A DNA stretch of 64,000 bases from a virus (IMGVR_UViG_2917886563_000007), one strand, 5' to 3'; positions 12,368-38,177 are shown, numbered from the stretch's first letter. The notes: a model not told the origin generated them from the letters alone. Made by a program: numbers and translations.

Positions 12368-15300
12368 ATGGTTAGTAGCCAGTATCCCCGGGGTTCAGAA
12401 TGGCATAAGTGGGATTTACATATTCACACTCCAGCATCTTTTCATTGGAATGGCCCGAGATTTAAGTCAGATCCACGCTCACCAGAGAACGCCCCACTAG
12501 TGGATGCAATGATCAATGCTATGAATGCAGCAGAACCAATCGCATTTGCGATTATGGATTATTGGACCTTTGATGGATGGTTTGCGTTAAAACATCGATT
12601 GACGCAAGAAGATGCCCCCAAGCTAGAAAAAACCGTTTTTCCTGGAATTGAATTGCGGTTGATGGCGCCAATGCGTGGAAGGCTAAATGCTCACGTTCTT
12701 TTTTCTGATCATATACCAGATCAGGAGCTTATTGATTTCAAGAGTAAACTAGAGGTTGCTCTAATAAATAAGTCATTATCAGATTCAGCCTTAATCCAAA
12801 TAGCTAGGGAGGCTGCACCAGATAAATTGCGGCATCATAGTCTCAACCAACAAAAGATTCTTCAATCTGATGCTGATGCTCTCAAGGCTGGTTCAATAAT
12901 AGCCGAGGTTACATGTGAGAGTTATCAAAAAGCAATTAACAGTGTCAGCAAAAATCAAGCTATTGGGTACATGCCATTTGATACCAATGATGGGCTTACT
13001 GAAATTGAGCGTAACGCGCATTATGCATTCGCATTAACTCTTTTCAAGACATCACCAATATTTGAAACAAGGGATTATGCTACGTGGGCAGCTTTCGCTG
13101 GTGTAAAGGTCCCTGAAAATGAAAGGTGGTTTGATGCTTTTCAAAAGGCTTTAAATAATAAACCTAGACTTGCTATTTCAGGGAGTGATGCTCACTGCTT
13201 TGTTGGAGAACCTGGTAACAATGATCGCCGAGGATATGGTGACTACCCTTCAGGAAAGGCAACATGGATAAAGGCTAATCCAACATTTGACGGATTAATG
13301 CAAGCAATAAGAGAACCAGCAAAACGTTCATTTATTGGTGCTATTCCTAAAAAACGGAAATTAGTAAGCGAAAACAGAAGTCTATTTATTGAAAAGCTAG
13401 AAGTTAAAAAATCAATTGATTCATCAATCAATGAATCCTGGCTCGACAATACGGATATACATTTAAATCACGATTTAGTCGCTATTATTGGTAATAAAGG
13501 TAGTGGTAAAAGTGCATTGGCTGATATTGCAGCGTTGCTTGGTAACTCTAAACAAAGTCATCATTTTTCCTTCCTAAAGGAAAATCGATTTAGAGGAAAA
13601 ACAGGTGAGCCAGCACGTCACTTCAATGCAAAAATAGTATGGAGTGATGAAAAAGAGTTAACAAAAAACCTTAATGATAATCCAGCAACTGAAAATGTTG
13701 AATTAATAAAATACATTCCACAAGGCCATTTTGAAGAGTTGTGTAATGCTCATGTATCGGGCCAATCAGATGCATTTGAAAAAGAACTAAGATCTGTAAT
13801 CTTCTCACATGCAGATGAATCTATACGCTTAGGTGCTCATGATTTTGAAGATCTGATAGAAAAGCAGGAGAGCTCTCTTCGAAGCCAACTAGAAAGCTAT
13901 CGTAGTGAGATGCATAAACTCAATGAACAAGTAATGTTTATTGAGAGCCAAATGACCGATGAAGCAAAAAAAGCACTTGATGAAATGTTGGCTCAAAAAG
14001 TTAGATTACTGGAAGAGTTGATCAAAGCAAAGCCAGAAGAAGTTCCTGAACCATCTAATGAGCTTACACAGGAACAACAACAAATATCTGAACAGCTATC
14101 AAACATCAATCAAGAATTAGAAAAGTTACAGAAGCAGCAAGAATCAGACCTAGAAGAACTTACAAAGTTAGCCGGAAAGAGAAAAGCAAGCAAGAATATT
14201 AAGGCTGGTTTTGAAATCGTCAAACGTGCAGTTAATCAATTTGTGTCAGAGTTTGATTCAGATGCTAAACTCCTTGGTTTGGATATAGAGAGTTTAGTTA
14301 GAGTTGATGTTGATGAAAAAACTCTCTCTGCATTAGACGATGCTGGTTCACTTCGTGAAAAAGAAATCAAAGAACGTCAATTAACCCAAGTGGCTAGTAA
14401 ACAATTAATTTTGGAGAAAAAAGCTCCACTAAATGCACAGTTGAATGCCCCACAACAAGCATACCAGTTGTTTAAAGAACAGCTCAAAGCTTGGGGTGAG
14501 AAACATGCAGCATTATTAGGAAACAAAGATGATCCAGATACACTCGAAGGTATCAAGCATAGAATATCTAAACTGGAGCAACTTCCAAGTCAACGATTAG
14601 AATTACATGAGAAACGAAACGATTTGACTCGAAAAATTTTTACAATTCTTAATGAGCAAAAAGAGAATCGTGAAACCCTTTTCGAACCAGTACAATCACT
14701 TATTCAAAATAATATTCTTATCCGTGATGAATACAAACTACAATTTAGAGCTGAACTAAGTAGCACTGCAGATCTAATTTCAAATAGATTATTTTCCATT
14801 GTTAAGCAAGCGTCGGGTGAATTTAGGGGCGAATCAGAGAGTCTTTCAGTAATTAAAGACCTTATGGATCGACATGATTTAAATGACCAAGAATCTTTAC
14901 TCATGTTTGTCCAGGAATTGCACAGAAAACTAGAGAGTTCTTCTAAGAATCCAGTTGGTGTAGCTTCATTGTTACGCAAAGATCGTACAGCTAATGAAGT
15001 TTATGACCTTATTTTTGGCTTAGAGTACCTTGAGCCAAGATATACATTAATGTTTCAAGATGCTCAAATAGGACAATTGTCTCCTGGACAAAGAGGGGCC
15101 TTACTTCTGATTTTCTATCTGCTTGTGGATAAAGGAAATACACCAATAATTCTGGACCAGCCTGAAGAGAATCTTGACAATGAAACTATTGTTAGCCTGC
15201 TTGTACCTGTTTTAACGGAAGCAAAGCAAAAACGACAGATTATTATGGTTACACATAATCCGAATCTTGCAGTTGTTTGTGATGCAGAGCAAATTATCCA

Positions 15301-15442
15301 TTGTGAGTTTGATCGCACAAAGGGGCACAAAATAACATATACCCCAGGAGCTATTGAGTGTAGCGTAATTAATAACAAAGTGGTTGATGTTCTTGAAGGA
15401 ACTATGCCTGCATTTGATAATCGTAGAATGAAGTATATGTGA
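12368..15442 (+). CDS. PHP-domain nuclease fused to SMC/Rad50-like ABC ATPase with long coiled coil (Ppl-like candidate antiphage protein)
   Basis: ORF 12281..15442 (1053 aa); best start ATG 12368 after AAGGAAAAG RBS. N-term PHP motifs (WDLHIHTP…, …SGSDAH…), Walker A IIGNKGSGKS, about 450-aa coiled-coil region rich in E/K/Q/L, C-terminal Walker B/D-loop ILDQPEENLD and H-loop MVTHNP. Confidence 0.7.
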   Translation: MVSSQYPRGSEWHKWDLHIHTPASFHWNGPRFKSDPRSPENAPLVDAMINAMNAAEPIAFAIMDYWTFDGWFALKHRLTQEDAPKLEKTVFPGIELRLMAPMRGRLNAHVLFSDHIPDQELIDFKSKLEVALINKSLSDSALIQIAREAAPDKLRHHSLNQQKILQSDADALKAGSIIAEVTCESYQKAINSVSKNQAIGYMPFDTNDGLTEIERNAHYAFALTLFKTSPIFETRDYATWAAFAGVKVPENERWFDAFQKALNNKPRLAISGSDAHCFVGEPGNNDRRGYGDYPSGKATWIKANPTFDGLMQAIREPAKRSFIGAIPKKRKLVSENRSLFIEKLEVKKSIDSSINESWLDNTDIHLNHDLVAIIGNKGSGKSALADIAALLGNSKQSHHFSFLKENRFRGKTGEPARHFNAKIVWSDEKELTKNLNDNPATENVELIKYIPQGHFEELCNAHVSGQSDAFEKELRSVIFSHADESIRLGAHDFEDLIEKQESSLRSQLESYRSEMHKLNEQVMFIESQMTDEAKKALDEMLAQKVRLLEELIKAKPEEVPEPSNELTQEQQQISEQLSNINQELEKLQKQQESDLEELTKLAGKRKASKNIKAGFEIVKRAVNQFVSEFDSDAKLLGLDIESLVRVDVDEKTLSALDDAGSLREKEIKERQLTQVASKQLILEKKAPLNAQLNAPQQAYQLFKEQLKAWGEKHAALLGNKDDPDTLEGIKHRISKLEQLPSQRLELHEKRNDLTRKIFTILNEQKENRETLFEPVQSLIQNNILIRDEYKLQFRAELSSTADLISNRLFSIVKQASGEFRGESESLSVIKDLMDRHDLNDQESLLMFVQELHRKLESSSKNPVGVASLLRKDRTANEVYDLIFGLEYLEPRYTLMFQDAQIGQLSPGQRGALLLIFYLLVDKGNTPIILDQPEENLDNETIVSLLVPVLTEAKQKRQIIMVTHNPNLAVVCDAEQIIHCEFDRTKGHKITYTPGAIECSVINNKVVDVLEGTMPAFDNRRMKYM

Positions 15443-20324: not shown

Positions 20325-21488
20325 TTACACATCATTAGTACCTTCCTTATTTTTTGACTGGGACAAATTTGGGACCGATGGGTTCAGGATCGAGTCTATT
20401 TGCCGTGCGTGTTCGGTAAGGTGATTAGGTGCAAGGTGAGCATATCGACGAACCATTTCGATAGACTCCCAGCCTCCCATTTCCTGTAACACTGACAACG
20501 GGACTCCGGCTTGAACCAGCCAACTTGCCCAGGTGTGTCTCAAGTCGTGAAATCTGAAATCATCAATACCAGCCCGTCTCAGCGCCGCTTTCCAGGCTGT
20601 GTTTGCGTCATACCGCATCTTCCTTACTGTTGGCGCTTTCGTTCCGTCTGGTTTGGTACAGCTTTCCTTGTACACAAATACCCAACGGTGATGATTCCCG
20701 ATTTGTTTTTTCAATACGCGACATGCAGTATCATTCAGCGCAACGCCAATTGCGCGGTTTGATTTACTCTCTTCCGGGTTTATCCATGCCACCCGGCGCT
20801 GCATATCTATTTGTTGCCATTCAAGGTTGATGATGTTCGAGCGTCTTAAACCTGTTGCCAGTGCAAATTCAACAACAGACTTTAATGGCTCCGGACATTC
20901 ATCAATCAGCCTTTGTGCTTCATGAGGCTCCAGCCAGCGGATCCGTTTATTCTTTGGTTGAGGCACTTTAATAATTGGTGCCTTATCCAGCATTTTCCAT
21001 TCACGCTCTGCGGCTCTTAGCAGGGCCTTTATAAATGAAAGATGCGTTGCCTTCGTTGCAACGGACGCTGGTTTTGGCGTGTATTCTGGAACTGGTTTCC
21101 CTTTTTTTCTGCATGCTTCTGCCCTGAGTTTCCAGTTTTCCTCATGACGCCGGTTCGTCATTTTCTGCATTGCTGAATAAATTTTTGATTCAGTAATGTC
21201 TCTTAGTTGCATTCCTGCGAAATGTTGAAGCCAGAATCCGATCCGGCTTTTGTCATCGTCCAGTGATTTTTTATGTGCTTTCTCTTCGAGCCACCTGACA
21301 CACGCCTCCTCGAACGTCATATCAGGTATTTCACCAAGTTTGCTGACCCGCCATGCTTCAGCCTTTAGCTTGTCATGGAGCTCTGTCGCCTGCCTTTTGT
21401 CCTTTGTTCCAAGAGACTGTTTAAATCTTTTACCGTTCGGCAATGTGAAACTGGCGTACCATATTTCACCTCTGCGGAAGAGTGACAT
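20325..21488 (-). CDS. int: tyrosine integrase (P22/DLP12 IntD-like)
   Basis: 387-aa [44 protein letters not shown]… matching P22/DLP12-type Int as recalled; stop codon 14 bp from tRNA repeat. Confidence 0.9.
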
Positions 21489-25358: not shown

Positions 25359-25433
25359 GGCTGAACTCCTGAAAATGGCTGTGAAAATATCGCCAGCGAA
25401 ATGCCAGGCTGATTAGAAAAACAGGAAAGGGGA

Positions 25434-25640
25434 TTAGTGATTCAGGCCGTTGCCGCGTCCGTCAAGAAAAACTTCCACGAGCAAGTCACGGGTATAAGTG
25501 CGCTCGATGCCGCGATGCAGATAAAGCCGTCCGCGTAAATTAGCTGATGCTGTCCAGGTACCATCTTTGTGTTTGACCAGCATTCCTGGCATGACCGCAC
25601 CGCGATTAACGGTCTGCGCTCCGTAATGTTGATGAACCAT
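25434..25640 (-). CDS. hypothetical protein in kil/cIII position
   Basis: 68-aa ORF downstream of gam; identity to lambda Kil not confirmed from memory; an overlapping 133-aa frame also exists. Confidence 0.4.
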   Translation of the reverse strand: MVHQHYGAQTVNRGAVMPGMLVKHKDGTWTASANLRGRLYLHRGIERTYTRDLLVEVFLDGRGNGLNH

Positions 25641-26197
25641 AAAAACCCCTGCCCGTAAGCTGGGCTGCTGAACATATAGAGACTTCTGCGCGTATTCAGG
25701 CGGTGGATGGCCGCCGGTGTCATAACTAAGCCGCCTCGTTGAAGCGACTGAGGTATGAAGTATCGAGTTGATTTCAGCTGGTCACACCGACGTTCACGCG
25801 TCCGTTTCACCCCTCGCACTCCCCGTAGCCTGCTGAAATTCAAGCTGCGGATCTAAGCGGTCATCGCAACGGTGAAGCGGTAAATCAGGAGATTGCCGCA
25901 TTCCTGTGCCGTTGTGATGGATTTATAATACCTATTGCTATTGATTATATCAATACGTATAAGTATCGAGCGATAGCGTTTGTTGTTATGCTGTTGATAC
26001 TGAAAAGAATTTAATGTTGAGGTTTTTTGTGACATTCGACTCAAAATGGATTTTGCAATTAAATAACCAATTGATAACAATGAAAACATTACGGAGAACT
26101 AGATAGGCCAAATTACTTGCCACGAAGATAGTTGTAAGCGTTGATAACAATGGTATTGAGGAGGGATACCCCCGACAATTGCGTCAGGGGGGAGGGA

Positions 26198-26584
26198 TTA
26201 TTGGGCTTTAATGTAATTTTTCAACTTTGCAGTTTGCTCTACAGCGCTAGGAATGCATCCAAACATATTTGCGCATGAAGTTTGAACAACAATTTCGTTC
26301 TTATCGTTTCCTAAAGGTGTTTTTACAACCTGATATCCAAGCACGGCACTATTTCCAATAGGAGTGTATGTGGAAATTACCGTTTCATCTGCCATCTGAA
26401 TTTTCCAACCAGAATTCATTGCTATCCAAGCTTTGGCTCTCGACCAATATGTATCGCATTGCTCTTTACCTTGACAGTAAACTGGTTGTTGAGCTTGTGC
26501 GGCAATTTGGGGATCTATTTTCTGAGCACATCCAGAGATGCTAATCAGAATAGCTGCTGTAACGAATAGTTTTCTCATTGACAT
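26198..26584 (-). CDS. lipoprotein encoded downstream of repressor (rexAB position); candidate superinfection-exclusion protein
   Basis: 128-aa ORF with lipobox MSMRKLFVTAAILISISGC; same strand as cI, 43 bp downstream of it. Confidence 0.6.
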   Translation of the reverse strand: MSMRKLFVTAAILISISGCAQKIDPQIAAQAQQPVYCQGKEQCDTYWSRAKAWIAMNSGWKIQMADETVISTYTPIGNSAVLGYQVVKTPLGNDKNEIVVQTSCANMFGCIPSAVEQTAKLKNYIKAQ

Positions 26585-26626
26585 TTCCTTTGTTTTGAAT
26601 ATACAACAAATAAATTGGCAAAAAAA

Positions 26627-27318
26627 TTATCCGTGTTTTCTATATGTCTGCGGCATGCTTCCAATGACTTTACCGAAGATGAACACTCGGTTCATCTCGT
26701 CTTTCTCGATCGGGTCCCACGGTGAGTAGCTCTTGTTATCAGAGATAACCAGCAGCTTATCCTTCATCATTTGCAGGCGCTTTACATGGGCTGTGTCGTC
26801 GTACAGAAACGCATAGATACCATCACCGTCGAAAGATTTAACTGTGATATCAACGAACAGCAGATCACCTGGTTCGATCGTTCCTGACATGCTGTCACCG
26901 CGCACGTTAATGATGCGGATATTTTCCGCCTTCCTGCCATCGAACATGTGACGAGCATCGTCAAACGAGTACTCAACCGAGCGTAGAACTTCTACAAACT
27001 CACGATTGATGACACCCGGCCCGGCACTGACTTCTATATCAAGAACGTCAATCTTGAAGTATTTGGAATGGTTGACAGCAGGCTTTTCTGATTGTTGACC
27101 GTCATTTCTCATCGGGCCTATGCCTGACGAGAGCCACTCTGTTCGAACACCCAATGCATTAGCTATTTCAACAATTTTTGTTGAGCCGCGCGCGTTGCCG
27201 CTTGTCAGTCTCCAGATTGTGGGTTGAGCTACGCCAGACGCCTTTGCAAGAGCGCCTTGAGACATTCCAGATTGTTCCATCGCTAGGTTTAAGCGATCAG
27301 CAAGAGTTTCTTTTTTCA
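26627..27318 (-). CDS. cI: prophage repressor (CI-like; HTH + S24 LexA-like peptidase domain)
   Basis: ORF 26627..27388; probable start MKKETLADRLN…; HTH (…MSQGALAKASGVAQPTIWRL…) and C-terminal S24 motif …GDSMSGTI…G…KRL…. Confidence 0.85.
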
Positions 27319-27422
27319 TAAGTTTTAATTTATACGCTTGCGTATTGATGGTCAAAAACGTTTTGCTATTGCTTGAGTTAATACGCATTGCTATTATCTA
27401 TTTATTGCAATACCAATAGGAA
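27319..27422. promoter_or_regulatory. OR operator/promoter region between divergent cI and cro
   Basis: Inverted-repeat sites atacgcttgcgtat and taatacgcattgctatta and related half-sites in a 104-bp divergent intergenic region. Confidence 0.6.
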
Positions 27423-27656
27423 TTGATAATGACAAATCAAACCATTCAACTCGCAATCAGTATTACAGGTAGTCAAAAACGACTGGCAGATCTCTGCGGT
27501 GTAGCCCAACCCACGGTTTGGCGTTGGCTACACGGTGGCGGAATTGATGCCCGCTATGTAATGAAAATTGTCTCAGCCACTGGTGGAAAGATTAAACCAG
27601 CAGATATTCGTCCCGACCTCGCACCATTGTTTAACGCGAGTAATTCTGCCGCCTAA
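27423..27656 (+). CDS. cro: Cro-like HTH regulator
   Basis: 77-aa ORF with HTH (…QKRLADLCGVAQPTVWRWL…), divergent from repressor. Confidence 0.7.
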   Translation: MIMTNQTIQLAISITGSQKRLADLCGVAQPTVWRWLHGGGIDARYVMKIVSATGGKIKPADIRPDLAPLFNASNSAA

Positions 27657-27686
27657 TCTGCGGCGTTAACTGATAAGGCAATTACT

Positions 27687-28226
27687 ATGCAACCACTTAC
27701 ATACCAACAGACTAGCGGATTTAGCCCGACTGCGGTGATAAATCGTTCTCAAACAAAACAGGCGCCAGGCCACGAAAAAATCCGTGATGCCGTTCGCGCC
27801 TGGTCGGCTGCAGATAATCAGGATGTTGTTGCCGCACTCATTGTGAATGAGTATCGGGAGCTGGGCGGCGGCACCATCGATTTCCCTGATGATGTCAGCC
27901 GTGCACGCCAGAAGTTGTTCCGCTTCCTCGATAACAAATTCGATTCTGAAAAATACCGAAATAACGTGCGTGAACTGACCCCGGCAATTCTGGCGGTACT
28001 ACCGCTGGAATATCGCGGCCACCTGGTTGAGCAGGATAGCTTTATGGCTCGGCTGGCTGAAATGGAAAAGGAACTCAGTGAGGCAAAGCAGGCGGTCATT
28101 CTCAACGCACCACGCCACCAGAAACTGAAGGAAATGAGTGAAGGTATTGTGTCGATGTTTCGTGTGGACCCAGATCTGGCTGGTCCACTGATGGCGATGG
28201 TCACCACCATGCTGGGGGCAATATGA
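27687..28226 (+). CDS. hypothetical protein in cII position
   Basis: 179-aa ORF between cro and O; not recognisably CII-like. Confidence 0.45.
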   Translation: MQPLTYQQTSGFSPTAVINRSQTKQAPGHEKIRDAVRAWSAADNQDVVAALIVNEYRELGGGTIDFPDDVSRARQKLFRFLDNKFDSEKYRNNVRELTPAILAVLPLEYRGHLVEQDSFMARLAEMEKELSEAKQAVILNAPRHQKLKEMSEGIVSMFRVDPDLAGPLMAMVTTMLGAI

Positions 28227-29242
28227 CAGGTTCAGAAATGGCGAAAGCCGGTCTGCTGGAACAGAACCGACTTTCAGGTGCAAATCGTAACGCACTCATT
28301 GCGGGAGGAATTATGGCAAACACTGCTGAGATATTCAATTTTCCAGTGCCGGATGTGGCACAAAAGGAGCCGCGCGTGGCAGATCTCGATGATGGTTATA
28401 CGCGCATTGCTAATGAGTTGCTGGAAGCTGTGATGCTGGCCGGATTAACACAGCACCAGCTTCTGGTCTTCCTGGCTGTCATGCGCAAAACATATGGCTT
28501 TAATAAAAAAATGGATTGGGTGAGCAACGAGCAACTTTCCGAGTTAACCGGGATATTGCCGCACAAGTGTTCTGCTGCAAAAAGTGTTCTGGTAAAGCGT
28601 GGGATTTTTATTCAGAGCGGGCGGAATACCGGCATTAATAATGTGGTCAGTGAATGGTCAACATTACCCGAATCAGGTAAGAAAAATAAAGTTTACCTGA
28701 AAGAGGTAAATTTACCTGAATCAGGTAAAAAAAGTTTACCCAAATCAGGTAAAGACGTTTACCTGAATCAGGTAAACACAAAAGACAAACTAACAAAAGA
28801 CAATATAAAACCTTATTCGTCCGAGAATTCTGGCGAATCCTCTGACCAGCCAGAAAACGACCTTCCTGTGGTGAAACCGGATGCTGCGATTCAGAGCGGC
28901 AGCAAGTGGGGGACAGCAGAAGACCTGACCGCCGCAGAGTGGATGTTTGACATGGTGAAGACCATCGCGCCATCAGCCAGAAAACCGAATTTTGCAGGGT
29001 GGGCTAACGATATCCGCCTGATGCGTGAACGTGACGGACGTAACCACCGCGACATGTGCGTGCTGTTCCGCTGGGCATGCCAGGACAACTTCTGGTCCGG
29101 TAACGTGCTAAGTCCGGCCAAACTCCGCGACAAGTGGACCCAACTCGAAATCAACCGTAACAAGCAACAGGCTGGCGTGACAGCCGGAAAACCAAAACTC
29201 GACCTGACGAACACTGACTGGATTTACGGGGTGGAGCTATGA
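28223..29242 (+). CDS. O: replication initiator O (lambda-like C-terminus, distinct N-terminal specificity domain)
   Basis: 339-aa ORF; C-terminal third matches lambda O as recalled (…NFAGWANDIRLMRERDGRNHRDMCVLFRWACQDNFWSGNVLSPAKLRDKWTQLEINRNKQ…); ori iterons inside. Confidence 0.9.
   Translation: MTGSEMAKAGLLEQNRLSGANRNALIAGGIMANTAEIFNFPVPDVAQKEPRVADLDDGYTRIANELLEAVMLAGLTQHQLLVFLAVMRKTYGFNKKMDWVSNEQLSELTGILPHKCSAAKSVLVKRGIFIQSGRNTGINNVVSEWSTLPESGKKNKVYLKEVNLPESGKKSLPKSGKDVYLNQVNTKDKLTKDNIKPYSSENSGESSDQPENDLPVVKPDAAIQSGSKWGTAEDLTAAEWMFDMVKTIAPSARKPNFAGWANDIRLMRERDGRNHRDMCVLFRWACQDNFWSGNVLSPAKLRDKWTQLEINRNKQQAGVTAGKPKLDLTNTDWIYGVEL
28666..28776. repeat. ori iterons (5 copies of ~19-bp tttacctgaatcaggtaaa-like site) followed by A-rich region
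   Basis: Copies at about 28666, 28692, 28711, 28735, 28758; each internally palindromic; followed by A-rich stretch 28777-28812. Confidence 0.85.
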
Positions 29243-29940
29243 AAAACATCGCCGCACAGATGGTTAATTTTGACCGTGAGCAGATGCGCCGGATCGCCAA
29301 TAACATGCCGGAACAGTACGACGAAAAGCCGCAGGTACAGCAGGTAGCGCAGATTATCAATGGTGTGTTCAGCCAGTTACTGGCAACTTTCCCGGCGAGC
29401 CTGGCTAACCGTGACCAGAACGAACTGAACGAAATCCGCCGCCAGTGGGTTCTGGCTTTCCGGGAAAATGGGATCACCACGATGGAACAGGTTAACGCTG
29501 GAATGCGCGTAGCCCGTCGGCAGAATCGACCATTCCTGCCATCACCCGGGCAGTTTGTCGCCTGGTGCCGGGAAGAAGCATCCGTTAACGCCGGGCTGCC
29601 AAACGTCAGCGAGCTGGTTGATATGGTTTATGAGTATTGCCGGAAGCGTGGCCTGTATCCAGATGCAGAGTCTTATCCGTGGAAATCAAACGCGCACTAC
29701 TGGCTGGTTACCAACCTGTACCAGAACATGCGGGCCAATGCGCTTACTGATGCGGAATTACGGCGCAAGGCTGCCGATGAACTGGCCTGTATGACCGCGC
29801 GAATTAACCGTGGAGAGGCGATACCTGAACCAGTAAAACAACTTCCTGTCATGGATGGCAGGCCGCTTAATCGTGTTCAGGCGCTGGCGAAGATCGCCGA
29901 AATCAAAGCGAAATTTGGGCTGAAAGGGGCGAGTGTATGA
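29239..29940 (+). CDS. P: replication protein P (DnaB loader)
   Basis: 233-aa ORF matching lambda P (MKNIAAQMVNFDREQMRRIANNMPEQYDEKPQVQQVAQII…). Confidence 0.95.
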   Translation: MKNIAAQMVNFDREQMRRIANNMPEQYDEKPQVQQVAQIINGVFSQLLATFPASLANRDQNELNEIRRQWVLAFRENGITTMEQVNAGMRVARRQNRPFLPSPGQFVAWCREEASVNAGLPNVSELVDMVYEYCRKRGLYPDAESYPWKSNAHYWLVTNLYQNMRANALTDAELRRKAADELACMTARINRGEAIPEPVKQLPVMDGRPLNRVQALAKIAEIKAKFGLKGASV

Positions 29941-30236
29941 CGGGCAAAGAGGCAATTATTCATTACCTGGGGACGCATAAGAGCTTCTGTGCGCAGGACG
30001 TTGCTGAGGTAACAGGCGCAACAGTAACCAGCATAAATCAGGCTGCGGCTAAAATGGCGCGGGCAGGAATCTTGGTCATTGATGGTAAGGTCTGGCGAAC
30101 GGTGTATTACAGGTTCGCTACCAGGGAAGAACGGGAAGGAAAGGTGAGCACGAATCTGATTTTCAAGGAGTGTCGCCAGAGTGCCGCGATGAAGCGGGTT
30201 TTATTTGTTTATGCGGCGGGGGGAGGAAATCAGTGA
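29937..30236 (+). CDS. ren: Ren
   Basis: 99-aa ORF matching lambda Ren (MTGKEAIIHYLGTH…). Confidence 0.85.
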   Translation: MTGKEAIIHYLGTHKSFCAQDVAEVTGATVTSINQAAAKMARAGILVIDGKVWRTVYYRFATREEREGKVSTNLIFKECRQSAAMKRVLFVYAAGGGNQ

Positions 30237-30511
30237 GGTTGACGATAACTAATATCTGGCGCTATATTCTGTGCGTTGCCGCAAAATCGGCACACGGGAT
30301 TGGCGTCCCGGATAAGGTAATCGCGACTACTACACGCCGCGAGCGTGTTTTTTATTGTCGTAAGCATACGCACATCTGAATTATGGTGGGGCGTGTAGGG
30401 CCGACTTCGGTCGGGCCGGTTGATTACCCCGGTTACGCCAACCCTACATGTCTCACCACCAAACTGATTGGCGTCAGCGGTGGTGGTTAACTTGATTTAT
30501 AGGTAATCATC

Positions 30512-31117
30512 ATGAGCACACAACTAGTCTTTCATCAAACAAAATTCCATCCTGTTAAACACAACAACAGTATCTGGCTTACTGCCGTTGAGATTGCTCA
30601 AGCTCTCGGATATAAAAAATCTGATGCCGTAACTCAGATCTACGATCGAAATTCCGATGAATTTAGGGCAGATATGACTGAGACCCTCAATTTGAGTGTC
30701 TCAGGGAACTACCAGAAAACAATACGCATTTTCTCCCTCCGTGGTGCCCATTTGATCGCTATGTTCGCCCGCACTCCTGTAGCCAAAGAATTCCGCCGCT
30801 GGGTTCTGGATATTCTCGATCGAGAAGTTCAACAATCCCCAATCACAAAACAATTCACTGATAACGAACTTTGCACACTCGCCTGGTTATGGCGAGCAGG
30901 GGATGTGATGTTAACCGCCTGCCAGAATGTTACTCCACTTCTTCAGGTTGCGGAGCATCGCGAAGCCGGTCGCTTTACTTCTATTGAGCAAGAATATCCC
31001 CAGATACTACATAAGGCGCGCGAAATCCTTGCCAGAGAAACGGCACATGTAAGATTCCAGCCGTGGCAGGATGATAAGTGGAGCCGAGTATTGCCGCATT
31101 TGCGTTCTGAGCAGTAG
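30512..31117 (+). CDS. BRO-N domain protein (antirepressor-like)
   Basis: 201-aa ORF; N-terminal BRO-N-like region (…HPVKHNNSIWLTAVEIAQALGYKKSDAVTQIYDRNSDEF…). Confidence 0.6.
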   Translation: MSTQLVFHQTKFHPVKHNNSIWLTAVEIAQALGYKKSDAVTQIYDRNSDEFRADMTETLNLSVSGNYQKTIRIFSLRGAHLIAMFARTPVAKEFRRWVLDILDREVQQSPITKQFTDNELCTLAWLWRAGDVMLTACQNVTPLLQVAEHREAGRFTSIEQEYPQILHKAREILARETAHVRFQPWQDDKWSRVLPHLRSEQ

Positions 31118-31297
31118 CAATAAAGTTTCCGGTGAGAAATGTCACCAGCATTTTGTTATGAAACGGGTATTGGCGGTATATGGGGGCGGGGCTTTAGTTA
31201 TTAGGTGTCGAGAATTAATTGTTTGTAGCAATATAAAAAGGAGCGCTTAAGTCCGTTTATTTTTTTAAGCTTCATATACATAGTGGATAAAAATGAG

Positions 31298-31322
31298 AAC
31301 CACCCGCTGAACGGGTGGTTTT
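31298..31322. terminator. hairpin terminator between convergent moron genes
   Basis: aaccacccgctgaacgggtggtttt with T-run on plus strand. Confidence 0.6.
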
Positions 31323-31395
31323 GCGCAAGTTAAATTTTATAATTTCAGTGAATCTTTACGCTGTAATAATGCAAATGATAGTTGAAAAAACACAA

Positions 31396-32073
31396 TCAGT
31401 CGATGGATTCTCCGTAGGATGCAACTGCCTGAGCGACGCAAAAACGATCAATACACTCTATTTCTCCATAATCACGCAGGCAATAATAAGTATTATTGTC
31501 TTTATCAAAAGCGTAAATGCTACAAATACCCTCAAGCTCACAACTTGCGTCCCATCCACTATTAGATAACGTGCCCCATTCCTGGTAAAGCCCTGCGTTA
31601 ACTTCTCGATTGATAATATGCGGTCCACTATAGTTATCATAATCGTAACTATAGATGTCACGTGCCTCAGGAAAATTCCCGTTCATGTTTTCAATCCACG
31701 GTAAAATATCTTTAACTGAGTTATAAAGTTCAATGCTGTATTTGAAAAAACGCTTCACAATAAAAACATAGATGCCGGCAGATTTGTTTGTTGATTTATC
31801 AGTGGCGAAAATGACAAAAATCTTCCCAACGCACTTTTCATCTACGCCCGGAAAAGTTACTGTGCCATCCTGGCTAACCGCCAGAACATTATTGTCTGCA
31901 TTAGTGCTACAGGTCCATTTTACCTTGTCATTATTAATAGGGTCATTATCAATGACCATCTTGAAGGTTGCTCCTGGGAACAAACTGTTAGGGAAACAGT
32001 AACCACTCTCCATATCATTTTTAATATCATAGATATGGCTATCAACTAACACGCCTGTAATTTTGCTCATCAT
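31396..32073 (-). CDS. hypothetical low-GC moron protein
   Basis: ORF 31396..32118; probable start MMSKITG; Asn/Asp/Tyr-rich, AT-rich codon usage unlike flanking lambda-like genes. Confidence 0.5.
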   Translation of the reverse strand: MMSKITGVLVDSHIYDIKNDMESGYCFPNSLFPGATFKMVIDNDPINNDKVKWTCSTNADNNVLAVSQDGTVTFPGVDEKCVGKIFVIFATDKSTNKSAGIYVFIVKRFFKYSIELYNSVKDILPWIENMNGNFPEARDIYSYDYDNYSGPHIINREVNAGLYQEWGTLSNSGWDASCELEGICSIYAFDKDNNTYYCLRDYGEIECIDRFCVAQAVASYGESID

Positions 32074-32584
32074 TGAACTCTCTTTGTTTGTTAAATAAAA
32101 AGTTTTATTCCTGAACAACGGAACACGCTGATATTAATGCAACCAATGAATTGTTGTTGTTATTTGGAGGTTATATAGTGGTATGAATGTTATTATGCGA
32201 TGTCTCTGAGTGATGGGGTAAGGATTATATGATTCGCTTTTGAGATTTACCTATGTCAGGCGTTGCTGTTCATGTTCGTCCCCGTTGTCAGTCTTCTTAG
32301 TCTGAGCTAATGTCATCATCAATGGGTTATCAGTTTTCTCTGAAGTTATATAATTAATTGAGCGCCATAGCACCATGGGGCATTGTTGAATTTCATCTTC
32401 AATTGATTTTCCATAATCAACTCGCCATAATCATGTCATCGGAGCCTGAACACCTCCGGTGACTTCTGCGCTAAACGGGGACGTTTATGCGCACACACAA
32501 TCTAAACTCTCTTCTCCCTTCACAGATGCAGAAATGCACCTGCGATTTTTTGCATCCAACGTTTGACCTCTGCGGAGGTGAAGC

Positions 32585-33040
32585 GTGAACCTCCCACAAG
32601 ACGGCATCAAATTACATCGCGGCAACTTCACCGCTATCGGTCAGCAGATCCAGCCTTATCTGGAGGATGGCAAATGCTTTCGCATGGTGCTTAAACCGTG
32701 GCGCGAGAGACGCAGTCTTTCCCAGAATGCACTCAGCCACATGTGGTACAGCGAAATCAGTGAGTACCTCATCAGCAGGGGTAAAACGTTCGCTACTGCA
32801 GTATGGGTAAAAGATGCACTCAAACACACATACCTCGGTTATGAAACCAAGGACCTGGTTGATGTCGTAACCGGCGAAATCACTACGATCCAGTCGTTAC
32901 GCCATACCTCCGATCTTGATACCGGAGAGATGTATGTCTTCCTGTGTAAGGTTGAAGCCTGGGCGATGAATATTGGCTGCCACCTGACTATTCCGCAGAG
33001 CTGCGAGTTCCAGCTGCTGCGCGACAAGCAGGAGGCGTAA
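32585..33040 (+). CDS. ninB: NinB/YbcN-family recombination protein
   Basis: 151-aa ORF with NinB-like core (…[21 protein letters not shown]…). Confidence 0.7.
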
Positions 33041-33210
33041 TGGCTACACCGCTTATTCGTGTCATGAGCGGACACATCTACAGAGTACCAAATCGTCGTA
33101 AGCGTAAGCCTGAGCTGAAACCATCCGAAATACCAACACTGCTCGGATATACCGCCAGCCTGGTTGATAAAAAATGGTTGCGACTGGCAGCAAGGAGGAA
33201 TCATGGCTGA
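33040..33210 (+). CDS. ninE: NinE-like small protein
   Basis: 56-aa [31 protein letters not shown]…[13 protein letters not shown], found by manual translation (below ORF-track threshold). Confidence 0.5.
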   Translation: MATPLIRVMSGHIYRVPNRRKRKPELKPSEIPTLLGYTASLVDKKWLRLAARRNHG

Positions 33211-33493
33211 TTTGAGAAAAGCAGCGCGTGGTCGGGAATGCCAGGTAAGAATCCCTGGCGTATGTAATGGCAATCCTGAAACGTCTGTACTGGCACATAT
33301 CCGGCTGGCTGGATTGTGCGGTACCGGTATCAAACCGCCAGACCTGATTGCCACCATTGCATGTTCTGCCTGTCACGACGAAATCGACCGCCGCACACAT
33401 TTTGTCGATGCTGAGTATGCAAAAGAATGCGCGCTGGAAGGTATGGCGAGAACGCAGGTTATCTGGCTGAAAGAGGGGGTAATCAAGGCGTGA
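33203..33493 (+). CDS. DUF1364-like nin-region protein (YbcO-like)
   Basis: ORF 33164..33493; probable start [32 protein letters not shown]…; Cys-rich. Confidence 0.6.
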
Positions 33494-33852
33494 ATACTTA
33501 CTACATCACACTACCCTGGCCGCCGAGCAATAACCGCTACTACCGCCATAATCGCGGGCGCACGCACATCAGCGCAGAGGGGCAGGTATACCGCGATAAC
33601 GTCGCCCGAATCATCAAAGGCTCCATGCTGGATATCGGTCTGGCTATGCCAGTGAAAATCCGTATTGAGTGCCACATGCCGGATCGCCGTCGCCGTGACC
33701 TGGATAATCTGCAAAAAGCAGCTTTTGACGCACTCACCAAAGCAGGTTTCTGGCTGGATGATGCTCAGGTCGTTGATTATCGCGTTGTGAAAATGCCCGT
33801 TACCAAGGGTGGAAAGCTGGAACTGATCATCACCGAACTGGGGGATGAATGA
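33490..33852 (+). CDS. rusA: Holliday junction resolvase RusA
   Basis: GTG start; 120 aa [26 protein letters not shown]… matching E. coli RusA as recalled. Confidence 0.9.
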
Positions 33853-34068
33853 TGTGTGAGTCATATATGGCAGAACTCCTTCGCTACCGCTGGGGGCGCC
33901 TGCGCTTATATCGTTTCCCGGTTCTGTTTTGACCGATTACCGGATACTGAAGAATTACGCCAAAACACTGGCAGAGACAATTGTATGAAGCCAGAGATAA
34001 CGATCGGTTGATGCCGTTTTATTGTTTTTTGCTGCCAATTGGCGTGCTGGTGTAAATGGAGAGCGAGA

Positions 34069-34821
34069 ATGAATCTTGAGGCCTTACCAAAATATTACTC
34101 CCCAAAATCTCCAAAATTGAGCGATGACGCACCGGCGACAGACTCAGGTGGTTTATCAATTACGGATGTGATGGCTGCGCAGGGGATGGTGCAGTCGAAA
34201 GCACCGCTTGGGTTTGCCTTATTCCTGGCAAAAGTTGGTGTTCAGGACCCTCAGTTTGCGATTGAAGGTCTGCTCAATTACGCGATGGCACTGGATAACC
34301 CGACATTGAATAAATTGAGTGCAGAAACACGGTTACAGATTATTCCTTACCTCGTGAATTTTGCCTTTGCTGATTATTCCAGGTCTGCGGCAAGTAAGGC
34401 TCGCTGTGAGCATTGTGCTGGTACGGGATTTCATAATGTATTGCGCGAAGTGGTGAAACATTCCAGAAGCGGGGAATCCGTTATCAAGGAAGAGTGGGTG
34501 AAGGAACTATGTCAGCATTGTCATGGTAAGGGAGAAGTCAGCACAGCGTGCAGAGGGTGTAAGGGTAAAGGTATTGTCCTGGATGAAAAAAGGACCCGGC
34601 TTCATGGCACGCCTGTTTATAAGATTTGTGGGCGTTGCAATGGAAACCGGTTTAGCCGTTTACCAACCACACTGGCGCGGCATCATGTCCAGAAACTGGT
34701 ACCGGACCTGACGGATTATCAGTGGTACAAGGGGTATGCTGATGTTATTGATAAACTGGTTACAAAGTGCTGGCAGGAAGAAGCATATGCAGAAGCACAG
34801 TTGAGAAAGGTGACAAGATAA
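34069..34821 (+). CDS. Q: late antiterminator Q (non-lambda type, zinc-finger rich)
   Basis: ORF 34039..34821; ATG 34069 after GGAG; CxxC…CxxC clusters (CEHCAGTG…CQHCHGKG…CRGCKGKG…CGRCNG); position between rusA and lysis genes. Confidence 0.6.
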   Translation: MNLEALPKYYSPKSPKLSDDAPATDSGGLSITDVMAAQGMVQSKAPLGFALFLAKVGVQDPQFAIEGLLNYAMALDNPTLNKLSAETRLQIIPYLVNFAFADYSRSAASKARCEHCAGTGFHNVLREVVKHSRSGESVIKEEWVKELCQHCHGKGEVSTACRGCKGKGIVLDEKRTRLHGTPVYKICGRCNGNRFSRLPTTLARHHVQKLVPDLTDYQWYKGYADVIDKLVTKCWQEEAYAEAQLRKVTR

Positions 34822-34926
34822 ATAATTTTCGCCGAAGATATCGACATGATGCTTGCATTTTTCAAAAAATATGGATAGGATTTTCTCAACGATGGGCTTT
34901 GTATGTCCGGTGTTGAGAAAAAGTAG

Positions 34927-34950
34927 AAAACCCGCTAATGAGCGGGTTTT
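34927..34950 (+). terminator. tR'-like terminator downstream of Q (late leader)
   Basis: aaaacccgctaatgagcgggtttt hairpin followed by gtgtttt. Confidence 0.6.
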
Positions 34951-35188
34951 GTGTTTTAAATGGGGAGGTGGCTGGATGTCTAAAATAAACATTGCTTCCA
35001 AGTGTACAACTATGCGTTAATGGCTGCGTCGGTTTGAAGAACAGACGATATACGAAGTAGTTTACTAAAGCAGTTCTCATTTCAGGTGTTATTCACTTAT
35101 TCCTTCTTTGAGTCTCTCCAATTAAGTACGAAGTCGTTTCTGTTATACAAATCATTTATGCCGAAAGGCTCAAGTTAAGGAATGTAGA

Positions 35189-35404
35189 ATGTCAAATAAA
35201 ATGACTGGTTTAGTAAAATGGTTTAACGCTGATAAAGGTTTTGGCTTTATTTCTCCTGTTGATGGTAGTAAAGATGTGTTTGTGCATTTTTCTGCAATTC
35301 AGAATGATAATTATCGAACCTTATTTGAAGGCCAAAAGGTTACCTTCTCTGTAGAGAGTGGTGCTAAAGGTCCTGCAGCAGCAAATGTCATTATTACTGA
35401 TTAA
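35189..35404 (+). CDS. cold-shock protein (CspA family; CspB/CspI-like prophage copy)
   Basis: 71-aa ORF with RNP motifs KGFGFI and VFVHF. Confidence 0.9.
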
Positions 35405-35603
35405 AATTCATAGCTTGTCTGTATACGATAACGAAGAAGGCTGATGCCTGAGTAGAGATGCAGATAGAGTTGTGGGTATTGAATCCCATTTTGTGGTGAA
35501 GTGCAGGTTTGCTGCATGAATAGTTTTACAGTAGAAGCTAACTGCTGGCATAGCAATACAAAGTGCGTAAGTGGGTAACTACCACAAAAAGCACCACAAT
35601 CTC

Positions 35604-35626
35604 AAACCCGCGCAGGCGGGTTTTTT
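35604..35626 (+). terminator. Rho-independent terminator after csp
   Basis: aaacccgcgcaggcgggtttttt. Confidence 0.75.
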
Positions 35627-35685
35627 ATTATCTGATTTAAATATATTATTAAAATATAAAAACTCTTTGTAAGTAATCAAAACAC

Positions 35686-35856
35686 TCAGGCAACAGCTTT
35701 AAGATTTGTTTGGAATACTTTGTTGCAATGAGGGCAGATCAAAAGGGCACCTTTTTGTACTCTAGAAAAACTGTGTTCTGATTCTTGGGTACAGTTTGGG
35801 CAGGAACATTTTACGAGATAATTACGGCGTGATTTTGAGTCTTTACGTTCTGACAT
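35686..35856 (-). CDS. small zinc-ribbon protein (2x CxxC)
   Basis: Manual translation of minus strand: MSERKDSKSRRNYLVKCSCPNCTQESEHSFSRVQKGALLICPHCNKVFQTNLKAVA (56 aa). Confidence 0.45.
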   Translation of the reverse strand: MSERKDSKSRRNYLVKCSCPNCTQESEHSFSRVQKGALLICPHCNKVFQTNLKAVA

Positions 35857-36077
35857 AGGCTTTTCCTGTATAAATGGCCGTATACATTACACTAAATAGA
35901 AAAATATATCCCGCATTATTATTTAATAGATGGTTTTTCTTTTAAAATATTTAACCACATTATTTTAATTTTCTGTTTTTTGAGCGTCGTTGAGAACAAC
36001 GTTTGCTGTAAAAACTAACCCGTAGACTCCGATCTTTTCAAACATATTGCACCATCCGTGTACATCGGGGTGAGGAT

Positions 36078-36293
36078 ATGAAATCAATGGATAAGTTAAC
36101 AACAGGTGTCGCCTATGGCACCTCTGCAGGCAGTGCTGGCTACTGGTTTTTACAGTTGCTCGATAAAGTCACGCCATCACAGTGGGCGGCAATAGGTGTG
36201 CTGGGTAGTCTGGTATTTGGCCTGCTGACGTACCTGACAAACCTTTATTTCAAGATTAAAGAAGATAAGCGTAAGGCTGCGAGAGGTGAATAA
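36078..36293 (+). CDS. S: holin (phage 21 S-like pinholin)
   Basis: 71-aa ORF matching phage 21 / DLP12 EssD holin as recalled (…[20 protein letters not shown]…). Confidence 0.9.
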
Positions 36294-36790
36294 TGTCGCC
36301 ATCATTACGCAAGGCTGTTGCAGCTGCTATTGGTGGTGGGGCTGTTGCCATAGCGTCTGTGCTCATCACTGGTCCGAGTGGTGACGATGGTCTGGAAGGT
36401 GTCAGCTACATACCATATAAAGATATCGTTGGCGTATGGACTGTATGTTACGGGCACACCGGAAAAGACATTATGCTCGGTAAAGCGTATACCGAAGCAG
36501 AATGCAAAGCCCTCCTGAATAAAGACCTTGCCACTGTCGCCAGACAAATTAACCCGTACATCAAAGTCGATATACCGGAAACAACGCGCGGCGCTCTTTA
36601 CTCGTTCGTCTATAACGTGGGCGCAGGCAATTTCAGAACATCTACTCTTCTTCGCAAAATAAACCAGGGCGATATCAAGGGCGCATGTGACCAGCTACGT
36701 CGCTGGACATACGCTGGCGGTAAGCAATGGAAAGGCCTGATGACTCGTCGTGAGATTGAGCGTGAGGTCTGTTTGTGGGGGCAGCAATGA
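36293..36790 (+). CDS. R: SAR endolysin (phage 21 R-like lysozyme)
   Basis: 165-aa ORF with N-terminal SAR hydrophobic segment and lysozyme catalytic region (…[16 protein letters not shown]…). Confidence 0.9.
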
Positions 36791-37224
36791 GCAGGGTAAC
36801 CGCGATTATCTCCGCTCTGGTTATCTGCATCATCGTCTGCCTGTCATGGGCTGTTAATCATTACCGTGATAACGCCATTACCTACAAAGAACAGCGCGAT
36901 AAAGCCACGTACATCATCGCTGATATGCAGAAGCGTCAACGTGATGTAGCAGTACTCGACGCCAGATACACAAAGGAGCTTGCTGATGCTAACGCGACTA
37001 TCGAAAGTCTCCGTGCTGATGTTTCTGCTGGTCGTAAGCGCCTGCAAGTCTCCGCCACCTGTGCAAAGTCAACGACCGGAGCCAGCAGCATGGGCGATGG
37101 AGAAAGCCCAAGACTTACAGCAGATGCTGAACTCAATTATTACCGTCTCAGAAGTGGAATCGACAGGATAACCGCGCAGGTTAACTACCTGCAGGAGTAC
37201 ATCAGGACGCAATGCCTGAAATAA
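36787..37224 (+). CDS. Rz: i-spanin Rz
   Basis: ORF 36775..37224; start [17 protein letters not shown] (N-terminal TM) then coiled-coil. Confidence 0.85.
36980..37171 (+). CDS. Rz1: o-spanin Rz1 (nested in +1 frame within Rz)
   Basis: 63-aa ORF with lipobox LLVVSAC and Pro-rich mature region, fully embedded in Rz. Confidence 0.8.
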
Positions 37225-37425
37225 TTTTTTTGCAAATCACAAAGTCAATTTAATGAGCCTCGCGATGCGGGGCTTTTTGCAATAAATGCGTACCGCAACG
37301 CATGTTTTTTACACCGAACCTGCCCCTTTGGAATGGGCCTTTGAGGATACCAGTTAGTGCTGGCGAGCCTCGGTGGGCTGGTTTCCTGTGCGGCAAAGGT
37401 TCGTTTCAAAGAGTAGGTACACGCT

Positions 37426-37923
37426 ATGAAATCATTAACCCTCTTCAATCAACCAATTCGTATCGGTGAAGATGGCATGATCTGCCTCACTGATATGTGG
37501 AAAGCCAGTGGTAAAAGTGAATCTGAATCTCCGTACCACTACCTGCGAAACAAGCAGACCAAAGAGTTCTTAGCCGAGCTGGAGAAAAACCACGAATCTG
37601 TGGTTTTTACTGAGCGCGGTGTACACGGTGGAACATATGGCGGGAAGTTTGTTGCTTATGATTATGCAGCATGGCTAAACCCCGGATTTAAATATGCAGC
37701 CTATAAAGTCCTGGATGACTACTTCACCGGAGAACTTCAGCATCGCAACAGCTTAAGTGCGCAGCTCAATATGAAGTGTCATGAGTTTGATCAGAAAAAA
37801 GATATGGCGAGCTTCTGTGGACAAGGGCTGGCGGCATGGCGCTATACGAAGCCAGTGTTGGTCGCTGAGATTAACTCCCTGGCTAACCAGCTGCAGATAA
37901 CGATCCCCGGGCTTCCGGGATGA
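37426..37923 (+). CDS. KilA-N domain protein
   Basis: 165-aa ORF; N-terminal KilA-N-like region (…IRIGEDGMICLTDMWKASGKSESESPYHYLRNKQTKEFLAEL…). Confidence 0.55.
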   Translation: MKSLTLFNQPIRIGEDGMICLTDMWKASGKSESESPYHYLRNKQTKEFLAELEKNHESVVFTERGVHGGTYGGKFVAYDYAAWLNPGFKYAAYKVLDDYFTGELQHRNSLSAQLNMKCHEFDQKKDMASFCGQGLAAWRYTKPVLVAEINSLANQLQITIPGLPG

Positions 37924-38177
37924 GTGATCGTGTCATTGAATGCGCCTCCAGAGCGGGGCGCGACTTCTCAGAGTTCATGAAAGGCGAGAAGGGCATGATG
38001 GAAGCATTGGCCTCGGTGGATGAGTTTGGCGAGCAGCTGCGCCTCAACGGCTGTGTCAATCATCACTTTGTTAGCTACATGATGCGGAACTCGATCATGC
38101 AGGCATTCATGGACATGGCAAAAGCCGAGAGGAAAGAAGAGCGCCGGCGTAAGCGAGCGGAAGCAAAAGCGAAGTAG
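37920..38177 (+). CDS. hypothetical protein
   Basis: 85-aa ORF overlapping previous stop; basic C-terminus. Confidence 0.4.
   Translation: MSDRVIECASRAGRDFSEFMKGEKGMMEALASVDEFGEQLRLNGCVNHHFVSYMMRNSIMQAFMDMAKAERKEERRRKRAEAKAK

Follow-up and report, generated by a model that had tools for sequence, protein, structure and literature searches.

The prophage interval analysed here lies at positions 30237-32584 of a window of 64,000 nucleotides (IMGVR_UViG_2917886563_000007; "the window" denotes this whole stretch, and all positions are counted from its first letter), between a ren-like gene and a ninB/ybcN-like gene. It contains a gene on the plus strand for a 201-amino-acid (aa) protein with BRO-N and P22AR_C domains, and a convergent gene on the minus strand for a 225-aa protein. 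Profile searches and a predicted structure clearly identify the 225-aa protein as a stand-alone version of the invasin D4-D5 module, in which an immunoglobulin (Ig)-like domain is packed against a C-type-lectin-like domain. This structural identity and the evolutionary behaviour of the gene are solid, and they are unexpected for a gene of the nin region; the function is what we infer from them. The sequence-only reading of the window had called the protein unknown: remote-homology and structure searches, which lead to the invasin module, have overtaken that description in all but the function. The interval comprises two independent units, an antirepressor operon and an opposite-strand cassette of about 1 kb, and the product of the latter is the receptor-binding tip of an inverse-autotransporter adhesin, stripped of its export machinery.

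The open reading frame (ORF) of the 225-aa protein (31396-32073, minus strand; 240 aa if read from an upstream TTG at 32118) is, judging from its homologues and its substitution pattern, a real gene and not a chance ORF. A search of 5.8 billion clusters returned 24 homologous clusters, all of them unnamed, from cryptic Escherichia clades, E. marmotae, E. ruysiae and a few E. coli drafts; start codon, length and frame are conserved across the 22 full-length ones, at 44-98% identity. Pairwise comparison of five main-family sequences gave ratios of nonsynonymous to synonymous substitution rates (dN/dS) of 0.11-0.19 over codons 1-118. The protein is rich in Asp (8.9%), Asn (8.4%) and Tyr (6.7%), and the G+C content is 0.35-0.41 across ~31100-32450 against 0.50-0.57 in the flanks. 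In both respects the sequence-only reading was right, as it was about the layout: the ORF map and the Pfam and PHROG searches recovered the ren gene, the plus-strand BRO-N gene, the minus-strand 225-aa gene and the ninB gene where it had placed them. No widespread structural or replication protein of lambdoid phages appeared as a homologue among PHROGs, 50,697 phage records or 1.84 billion representative sequences.

The relationship to invasin emerges from several comparisons. An exhaustive HMMER search of the 1.84 billion representatives returned only four sequences at E<1e-30, and the more distant matches fell in the C-terminal parts of long proteins. Of four long relatives that were scanned, three (P0038, P0043 and P0049) contain IAT_beta, Big_1 and Invasin_D3/D4 domains, with LysM in P0043 only, and are therefore true inverse autotransporters. 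The C-terminal tip of such proteins (type Ve), made of an Ig-like and a C-type-lectin-like domain, is present in the window protein. An AlphaFold model based on a 22-sequence alignment reached a predicted local distance difference test (pLDDT) of 86.5 and a predicted template-modelling score (pTM) of 0.85, and Foldseek with this predicted model found invasin (E 7e-12) and intimin (E 2e-6) over ~230 columns. The family profile matched D4 of the PDB invasin structure (E 8e-7, residues 4-107), and a wider profile that includes the adhesin C-termini matched invasin residues 798-971 at E 6e-36. In Pfam, the window protein has no Intimin_C match, and its Invasin_D4 (PF21764) match of 17.9 bits (E 0.004) stays below the gathering threshold of 27; the same model is matched above threshold by the paralogue P0025 (33.4) and by the orphan P0036 (33.7), which supports homology at the family level. 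Residues 1-106 (31756-32073, minus strand) form the Ig-like domain equivalent to D4 in the match to PDB invasin, and residues ~107-225 with the stop codon (31396-31755, minus strand) form the lectin-like domain equivalent to D5, which includes hypervariable loops at residues 148-151, 175-185 and 193-213. The viral structure library BFVD matched the Ig domain only, with a template-modelling (TM) score of ~0.25. The literature searched contains no description of this protein family.

The protein starts with MMSKITGVLVD, at the D4 boundary. No Sec signal peptide was found, Kyte-Doolittle hydropathy over 12 residues peaking at 1.2 within the first 46 residues, with or without the TTG extension, and the window protein contains no lipobox and no hydrophobic or transmembrane segment. 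The Pfam scan found neither an IAT beta-barrel (PF11924) nor LysM in it, and 225 aa are too short for a barrel. The two disulfide cysteines of invasin (C907 and the C-terminal Cys) align with I127 and S219; across the Escherichia family the two positions are occupied by Ile/Val and by Ser/Phe, whereas 19 of the 19 other relatives in the alignment keep both cysteines, including P0042, a stand-alone protein of 241 aa with a hydrophobic N-terminus. Two further leaderless orphans, P0039 from Citrobacter amalonaticus and P0036 from a metagenome, are also without both cysteines. All leaderless members have lost the pair, and the four long relatives that were checked are exported-type proteins. We take this coincidence of leader absence with disulfide loss as the main, indirect evidence for residence in the reducing cytoplasm. 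The window protein is probably an intracellular binding protein. As it has no signal peptide, no barrel and no disulfide, we would not class it among the inverse-autotransporter adhesins. The residues needed by invasin for beta1-integrin binding are Asp911 in D5 and Asp811 in D4: Asp911 aligns with N131, in an approximate loop-region alignment in which the family has N, G, H or K, and there is an insertion in the Asp811 region.

Over codons 119-225 the pairwise comparisons gave dN/dS values of 0.27-1.2, or 0.69-1.2 if the closest pair is excluded. A sliding analysis of seven alleles placed the ratio of nonsynonymous to synonymous polymorphism (pN/pS) at 0.02 in the Ig core (codons 31-45) and at 1.11, 0.77 and 0.92 over codons 136-150, 166-180 and 196-210, respectively. 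The Ig half evolves under strong purifying selection. The three hypervariable loops named above are the entropy hot spots of the alignment, and the same stretches are lower-confidence loops of the model. The way in which the variation arises is visible in the comparison of the window with the prophage of Escherichia sp. E1130 (L019), where over most of 29000-34000 there are 0-1 differences per 100 bases and where 67 mismatches fall within 31400-31800. In the gene, 48 codons differ, 47 of them after codon 95, with 35 nonsynonymous and 13 synonymous changes; the synonymous changes standing alongside nonsynonymous ones point to recombination between alleles. On this alignment, the difference is an intragenic replacement of the lectin-coding half by another allele and not the product of in-situ hypermutation. 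In fact, the spectrum is mixed and not adenine-specific (G>A, A>G and T>A are commonest), and no second copy of 31396-31800 that could serve as a template repeat was found in the 64-kb window. Hypermutation by a diversity-generating retroelement (DGR) was rejected on these grounds, i.e. the mixed spectrum, the synonymous changes and the lack of a template repeat in the window. We also considered a silent donor cassette for adhesin-tip variation and rejected it, because the gene keeps its start codon, ribosome-binding site and ORF but lacks the disulfide cysteines that exported tips need.

The 225-aa gene belongs to a cassette of about 1 kb (31217-32211, minus strand), composed of a conserved upstream region, the gene and a terminator, which is the sole block common to the window and to a chromosomal copy in E. 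marmotae (84% identity). The upstream region (32074-32211, minus strand), presumably the promoter and operator, contains a ribosome-binding site, a TTCC-N8-GGAA inverted repeat and TATAAT-like boxes; the block common to E. marmotae includes about 140 bp upstream of the gene, and an alignment of upstream sequences shows conservation of about 150 bp across five different, unrelated genomic contexts. A G+C-rich hairpin with a 10-bp stem (31298-31320; -16.5 kcal/mol, z -3.97 relative to shuffled sequences) and a T-run on the minus strand forms the terminator; this is the hairpin that the sequence-only reading had placed between the two convergent genes; it is possibly also a weak terminator on the plus strand.

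A comparison with the prophage of E. coli ETEC1720 (L001) places this cassette inside a slot for variable cargo. L001 is 76% identical to the window over 30237-31162; homology stops at 31162 and resumes at 32403, from where identity is 94%. The break at 31163-32402 divides the interval into three parts, so that its 2.35 kb are a composite, missed by the sequence-only reading, of a conserved module, a 1.24-kb variable slot and the leader of ninB/ybcN. In L001 the slot is occupied instead by a HEPN-domain gene and a hypothetical gene, within flanks that are 76-94% identical. The L001 cargo (5175-5971 of that locus) has its HEPN-domain gene overlapping the 133-aa hypothetical gene, possibly an HEPN/MNT-like pair. 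No repeats flanking the insertion were found in the window; in L001 a 129-bp piece of the ninB leader (window 32427-32555) is directly repeated on both sides of the c4-ant-cargo module, with copies at 3723-3851 and ~6035-6163. Between cassette and leader the window has an AT-rich spacer (32212-32402) specific to its prophage lineage, with a promoter-like site on the plus strand (32327-32354) and a 41-codon ORF on the minus strand (32251-32376). The latter was rejected as a gene, having no PHROG match and lying outside the block common to the E. marmotae copy. The whole interval had been taken for a moron insertion: this is supported for the 225-aa gene, which behaves as an autonomous cassette of atypical composition that recurs elsewhere and is replaced by the HEPN cargo in ETEC1720, and not for the BRO-N gene, which belongs to an isrK/C4 antirepressor module.

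The family is tiny and almost confined to Escherichia other than E. coli. Tblastn of the 225-aa protein gave zero matches in the 50,697 phage records and in 72,556 plasmids, and blastn of the cassette gave none in 5,426 complete E. coli genomes. The prophage predictions of IMG/VR include 15 loci, of which L027 is identical to window 25399-38073, and the cassette occupies the nin slot of lambdoid prophages with differing replication modules. In E. marmotae, where the protein cluster was observed on hundreds of contigs, the chromosomal copy is found at the DLP12 site, flanked by ybcH/nfrA and emrE-folD; a ninE fragment that comes after it, in collinear order with the window, identifies the locus as a decayed prophage that kept the 225-aa gene. 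The same site carries a family member in E. ruysiae and a frameshifted one in E. whittamii, and the latter species has a family member in its yedE/fliE island as well. A paralogous family of 232-233 aa (~43% identity) uses a second slot about 1 kb from xis-int (L013, 1472-2173; L031, L033 and L034); some of these prophages also carry a nin-slot copy, and the window has the nin-slot copy only. Escherichia sp. E1V33 has four paralogues in one genome, up to two are found per prophage, and several cassette copies are frameshifted or truncated pseudogenes. In one prophage (L030, IMGVR_UViG_2917891409_000001) two diverged [antirepressor-cassette] units stand in tandem (3538-5075 and 6001-7564), with Ant 80% and 100% and cassette protein 82% and 98% identical to the window; the alignment of the 98% copy ends at residue 211, a possible truncation. 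Taken as a whole, these genomic comparisons describe an autonomous, mobile and decaying cargo unit that travels with its own upstream region and terminator.

Members are also found in islands. A 222-aa member lies in one of E. coli (L016, GCA_012617125.1, 1-14669) with a 2639-aa inverse autotransporter, an omptin and a 1487-aa autotransporter; the island also has three toxin-antitoxin pairs (TacA/TacT, HipBA and Phd/Fic) and a 784-aa protein without Pfam match. The two leaderless orphans are singletons, P0036 on a Logan contig (L022, ERR6747877; 308-640 and 2298-4253) and P0039 in C. amalonaticus (L020; 4672-6443), and a profile built from both returned those two proteins only. One of the two has an emrE-like gene in its vicinity, together with a 651-aa protein that matches Invasin_D3 weakly, and the other is beside an insertion-sequence transposase at bluF-mlrA.

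The loops vary, alleles are swapped, paralogues are several, copies often decay, the gene can outlive its prophage and it resides in a cargo slot. Such a combination is expected of genes in conflict with other mobile elements, and it leads us to favour a role in conflicts between phages or between phage and host. The protein would stay in the cytoplasm of the lysogen, where its variable lectin loops might bind a protein target that itself varies, most plausibly a component of competing phages or of other mobile elements. It could then act alone as an exclusion or immunity factor, by sequestering or blocking this component, and allele swapping would renew its specificity. We favour such a single-protein role, tentatively, from the sequence comparisons at hand. 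A more elaborate version, rather doubtful at present, is an antibody-like immunity of prophages, with an adhesin tip domesticated for the cytoplasm, loops that recognise proteins of invading phages, and a specificity renewed by swapping of lectin halves and by the presence of several paralogues.

Several observations count against this proposal. There is no effector domain, and no partner gene is conserved with the cassette; the characterised relatives are all extracellular adhesin tips; and since PHROGs, PADLOC-DB (E<=0.1) and NCBIfam gave zero matches, nothing ties the 225-aa protein to a known defence system. Its eight cysteines (3.6%) are, in our judgement, many for a cytoplasmic protein, and the conserved C81 and C184 could form an alternative disulfide. 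A consensus scan found no sigma-70 site on the minus strand upstream of the gene, so that the promoter of the cassette is only presumed. Values of pN/pS near 1, calculated from seven alleles only, could in part mean relaxed constraint and not positive selection. Finally, the presence of some members in islands beside large adhesin genes fits a role in host interaction equally well.

Such a role is the strongest alternative, and we consider it unlikely. The protein would be a lysogenic-conversion factor, a soluble ligand of invasin or intimin type released by lysis, in vesicles or by a secretion route not recognised here, which binds a receptor on animal or bacterial cells and whose loops vary as they do among intimin alleles. 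Its sole structural relatives are indeed integrin-binding and Tir-binding adhesin tips, the hypervariability falls in the lectin domain that intimin uses for Tir and invasin for integrins (PMC6714894), and the gene is AT-rich as many horizontally acquired genes are. Giant inverse autotransporters, autotransporters or an omptin accompany some members in islands, and an invasin-like adhesin without a barrel, InvL, is reported to be secreted by the type II secretion system (PMC9245377). Against this stand the absence of signal peptide, lipobox and hydrophobic segment and the loss of both disulfide cysteines that all the other aligned relatives keep; moreover, Asn131 takes the place of Asp911 in the alignment, and the family does not conserve an Asp there. 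The gene also lies opposite to the phage operons, with a regulatory region of its own, and is not coupled to the late or lysis genes.

The tandem units of L030 suggest another possibility, namely that the protein is a partner of the neighbouring antirepressor, binding and buffering Ant as an anti-antirepressor or tuning the lysis-lysogeny switch, which would account for the co-travel and co-duplication of the two genes. In the nin-slot copies examined (L004, L005, L006, L008, L019, L023, L026 and L029), ant neighbours the cassette in convergent orientation, and in L018 ant is truncated. This is nevertheless improbable, as the cassette occurs without ant at the chromosomal sites of E. marmotae, E. 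ruysiae and E. whittamii, beside xis-int and in islands. Between the window and L019 or L029, Ant is 99.5-100% identical and the cassette protein 84%, which means that the variable loops do not co-vary with Ant.

It is quite improbable that the protein is an accessory component of the virion, made in the cytoplasm as a receptor-binding or decoration protein on the particle, with loops that track host receptors as in the tail proteins targeted by DGRs. Virion proteins need no signal peptide and do use Ig and C-type-lectin folds with variable loops. Phage receptor-binding proteins of lectin fold are a known class (PMC10743442), and at the level of the single domain the N-terminal part resembles phage Big_2 decoration domains. 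However, the searches of phage genomes and PHROGs were empty and the BFVD match was confined to the Ig domain; the gene occupies the early nin region in opposite orientation and ends in a terminator of its own, it is intact in E. marmotae after the loss of the remaining prophage, and a template repeat was not found in the window. That the gene is a non-functional relic, a captured fragment of an inverse autotransporter drifting in the prophage, is highly improbable: frameshifted and truncated copies are frequent and the C-terminal pN/pS is near 1, but the frame conserved across the family, the low dN/dS with its minimum in the Ig core, the conserved upstream region and terminator, the confident structure prediction and the concerted loss of both cysteines in all leaderless members speak against drift.

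The other half of the interval is, from its RNA and protein matches, a matter of ordinary phage regulation: the BRO-N gene is the antirepressor of a module of the known isrK/C4-controlled type (P1 immI, Gifsy-1 isrK-anrP). The RNA elements upstream of it, absent from the sequence-only reading, were detected by an Rfam scan. They comprise an isrK-type small RNA (30277-30353, plus strand; RF01394, 61.2 bits, gathering score 50, E 2e-11), with its terminator hairpin at 30332-30348 (plus strand) in the terminator scan, and a C4-type antisense RNA element (30379-30463, plus strand; RF01695, full-length model match of 74.2 bits, gathering score 45, E 2e-13). A c4-a1b1 target match (30262-30314, plus strand; RF03163) overlaps the 5' part of isrK and is sub-threshold at 41.9 bits (gathering score 46.7). 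No isrJ match was found by Rfam downstream of the module. A 35-codon leader ORF (30383-30490, plus strand), read from the sequence and with weak PHROG matches, lies between isrK and the antirepressor gene, and a 35-aa gene is called at the equivalent position in L005 and L019. The 201-aa protein (30512-31117, plus strand) is of antirepressor type, similar to AnrP/Ant, in which Bro-N (51.2 bits) and P22_AR_C (57.3 bits) exceed their Pfam cut-offs and which matches PHROG anti-repressor Ant families at E 4e-52. A small hairpin just 3' of its stop codon (31129-31148) is terminator-like on both strands in the scan. Parts of a 2.35-kb query that included the antirepressor module and the ninB leader matched 3,153 of the 5,426 complete E. 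coli genomes, and none of the 5,426 covered >=80% of it.

By analogy, we infer that the RNA elements would hold the antirepressor untranslated until needed, as in P1 immI and in Gifsy-1 isrK-orf45-anrP. The P1 immI operon (c4-icd-ant) has the same organisation as the module of the window, where isrK and C4 elements that score above the gathering scores lie directly upstream of a short leader ORF and of a gene of the antirepressor family. In Gifsy-1 the order is PisrK, isrK, orf45, anrP, and the operon is transcribed with anrP untranslated unless IsrK acts in trans via the leader ORF (PMC4825925). A candidate sigma-70-like promoter ahead of isrK in the window (30239-30268, plus strand; TTGACG-18-TATATT, 10 of 12 consensus positions in the scan) has the position of PisrK in Gifsy-1 (PMC4825925). 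Unlike in Gifsy-1, the leader ORF has 35 codons and not the 45 of orf45, in an otherwise equivalent position, and the module is placed in the ren-ninB interval of a lambda-like prophage.

At the left border of the interval is the ren-like gene (29937-30236, plus strand; PHROG 142 "Ren-like exclusion protein", E 7e-41) and on the right the ninB/ybcN-like gene (32585-33040, plus strand; PHROG 72 NinB/Orf, E 2e-51; NCBIfam PRK09741, 276 bits), annotated YbcN in L001. Its conserved leader (32403-32588, plus strand) includes a 33-codon ORF (32487-32588) that overlaps the GTG start of ninB/ybcN.

Elsewhere in the prophage, at the cro/cII positions (27423-28226, plus strand) there are YdaS-like and YdaT-like genes, belonging to Pfam "toxin" families, followed by replication genes similar to lambda O and P. 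Just downstream of the cI-like repressor, at the position of lambda rexAB, two ORFs (26198-26584 and 25442-25843, minus strand) have no Pfam match; one matches only PHROG 16082, of unknown function, and the other matches nothing in PHROGs. In L005 the same position is occupied by a DUF6932 protein and a 310-aa unknown protein. The Q protein (34039-34821, plus strand) combines Antiterm and a DnaJ-type zinc finger. Between the Q antiterminator and the lysis genes we found a full-length cspA-type thermoregulator 5' untranslated region (Rfam, 155.9 bits) with a cold-shock-domain gene (35028-35420, plus strand), and nearby a YnfU-like zinc-ribbon gene (35686-35856, minus strand); the prophage seems to have another cargo region here.

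At the left end of the window a tRNA-Thr gene (CGT, thrW, 1369-1444) is next to proA, and about 19 kb of island genes extend to ~20262, before a lambdoid integrase at 20325-21488. Window 1-12000 has matches in E. coli, among them DUF932, a protein of a GTPase family and ykfG-like genes, and a 1053-aa ORF is present at 12281-15442. In the IMG/VR prophage L031 the same integrase directly abuts thrW/proA, so the window seems to carry two tandem elements at thrW. The flank at proA-thrW is ~92% identical to E. coli, from which the host of the prophage is probably an Escherichia of a cryptic clade.

The invasin/intimin tip is a textbook extracellular module, and a leaderless, disulfide-free version in prophages would show that its scaffold can be re-used inside the cell. 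Such orphans would be missed by a survey of inverse autotransporters in E. coli that dropped proteins without a signal sequence or barrel (PMC6714894). The present analysis supplies a structural identity for a "hypothetical protein" whose cluster was observed on hundreds of contigs of E. marmotae and which is present in several copies in cryptic Escherichia. The slot between ant and the ninB leader, in which the cassette and the HEPN-domain gene alternate, is a good place to seek new conflict genes. If the protein is a binder of mobile-element components, it would be a compact natural scaffold with swappable specificity; if it acts on the host, it would be a new candidate for a colonisation factor in E. 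marmotae, an emerging pathogen.

Among known systems, the closest is invasin of Yersinia pseudotuberculosis, whose D4-D5 superdomain is the minimal integrin-binding C-terminal fragment. The window protein differs in being a free-standing product of 225 aa on a prophage cassette, without signal peptide, LysM, beta-barrel and D1-D3 stalk. In intimin of enteropathogenic and enterohaemorrhagic E. coli (EPEC/EHEC) the Ig and lectin-like domains bind Tir, and here the similarity is at the profile level only; unlike intimin, the window protein has no outer-membrane anchor or export signal, and its carriers are mostly Escherichia other than E. coli. To our knowledge, no Tir-like partner exists for it. 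The variable C-type-lectin proteins targeted by DGRs, such as Mtd of the Bordetella phage and the tentaclins (PMC10743442), share with it hypervariable loops on a lectin scaffold and a location on a mobile element. They differ from it in their mechanism of variation, as neither a template repeat within the 64 kb nor an adenine-specific pattern was found here. Single-gene exclusion factors of prophages are exemplified by P2 Tin and 933W Stk, and the cassette protein is related in sequence or fold neither to these nor to the products of the classical lambdoid morons. In its organisation, however, the cassette resembles these factors and the classical lambdoid morons, as it has one gene with its own terminator, a conserved upstream region and an atypical G+C content, and like the morons it is inserted between conserved phage genes and swapped, in relatives, for a HEPN cargo.

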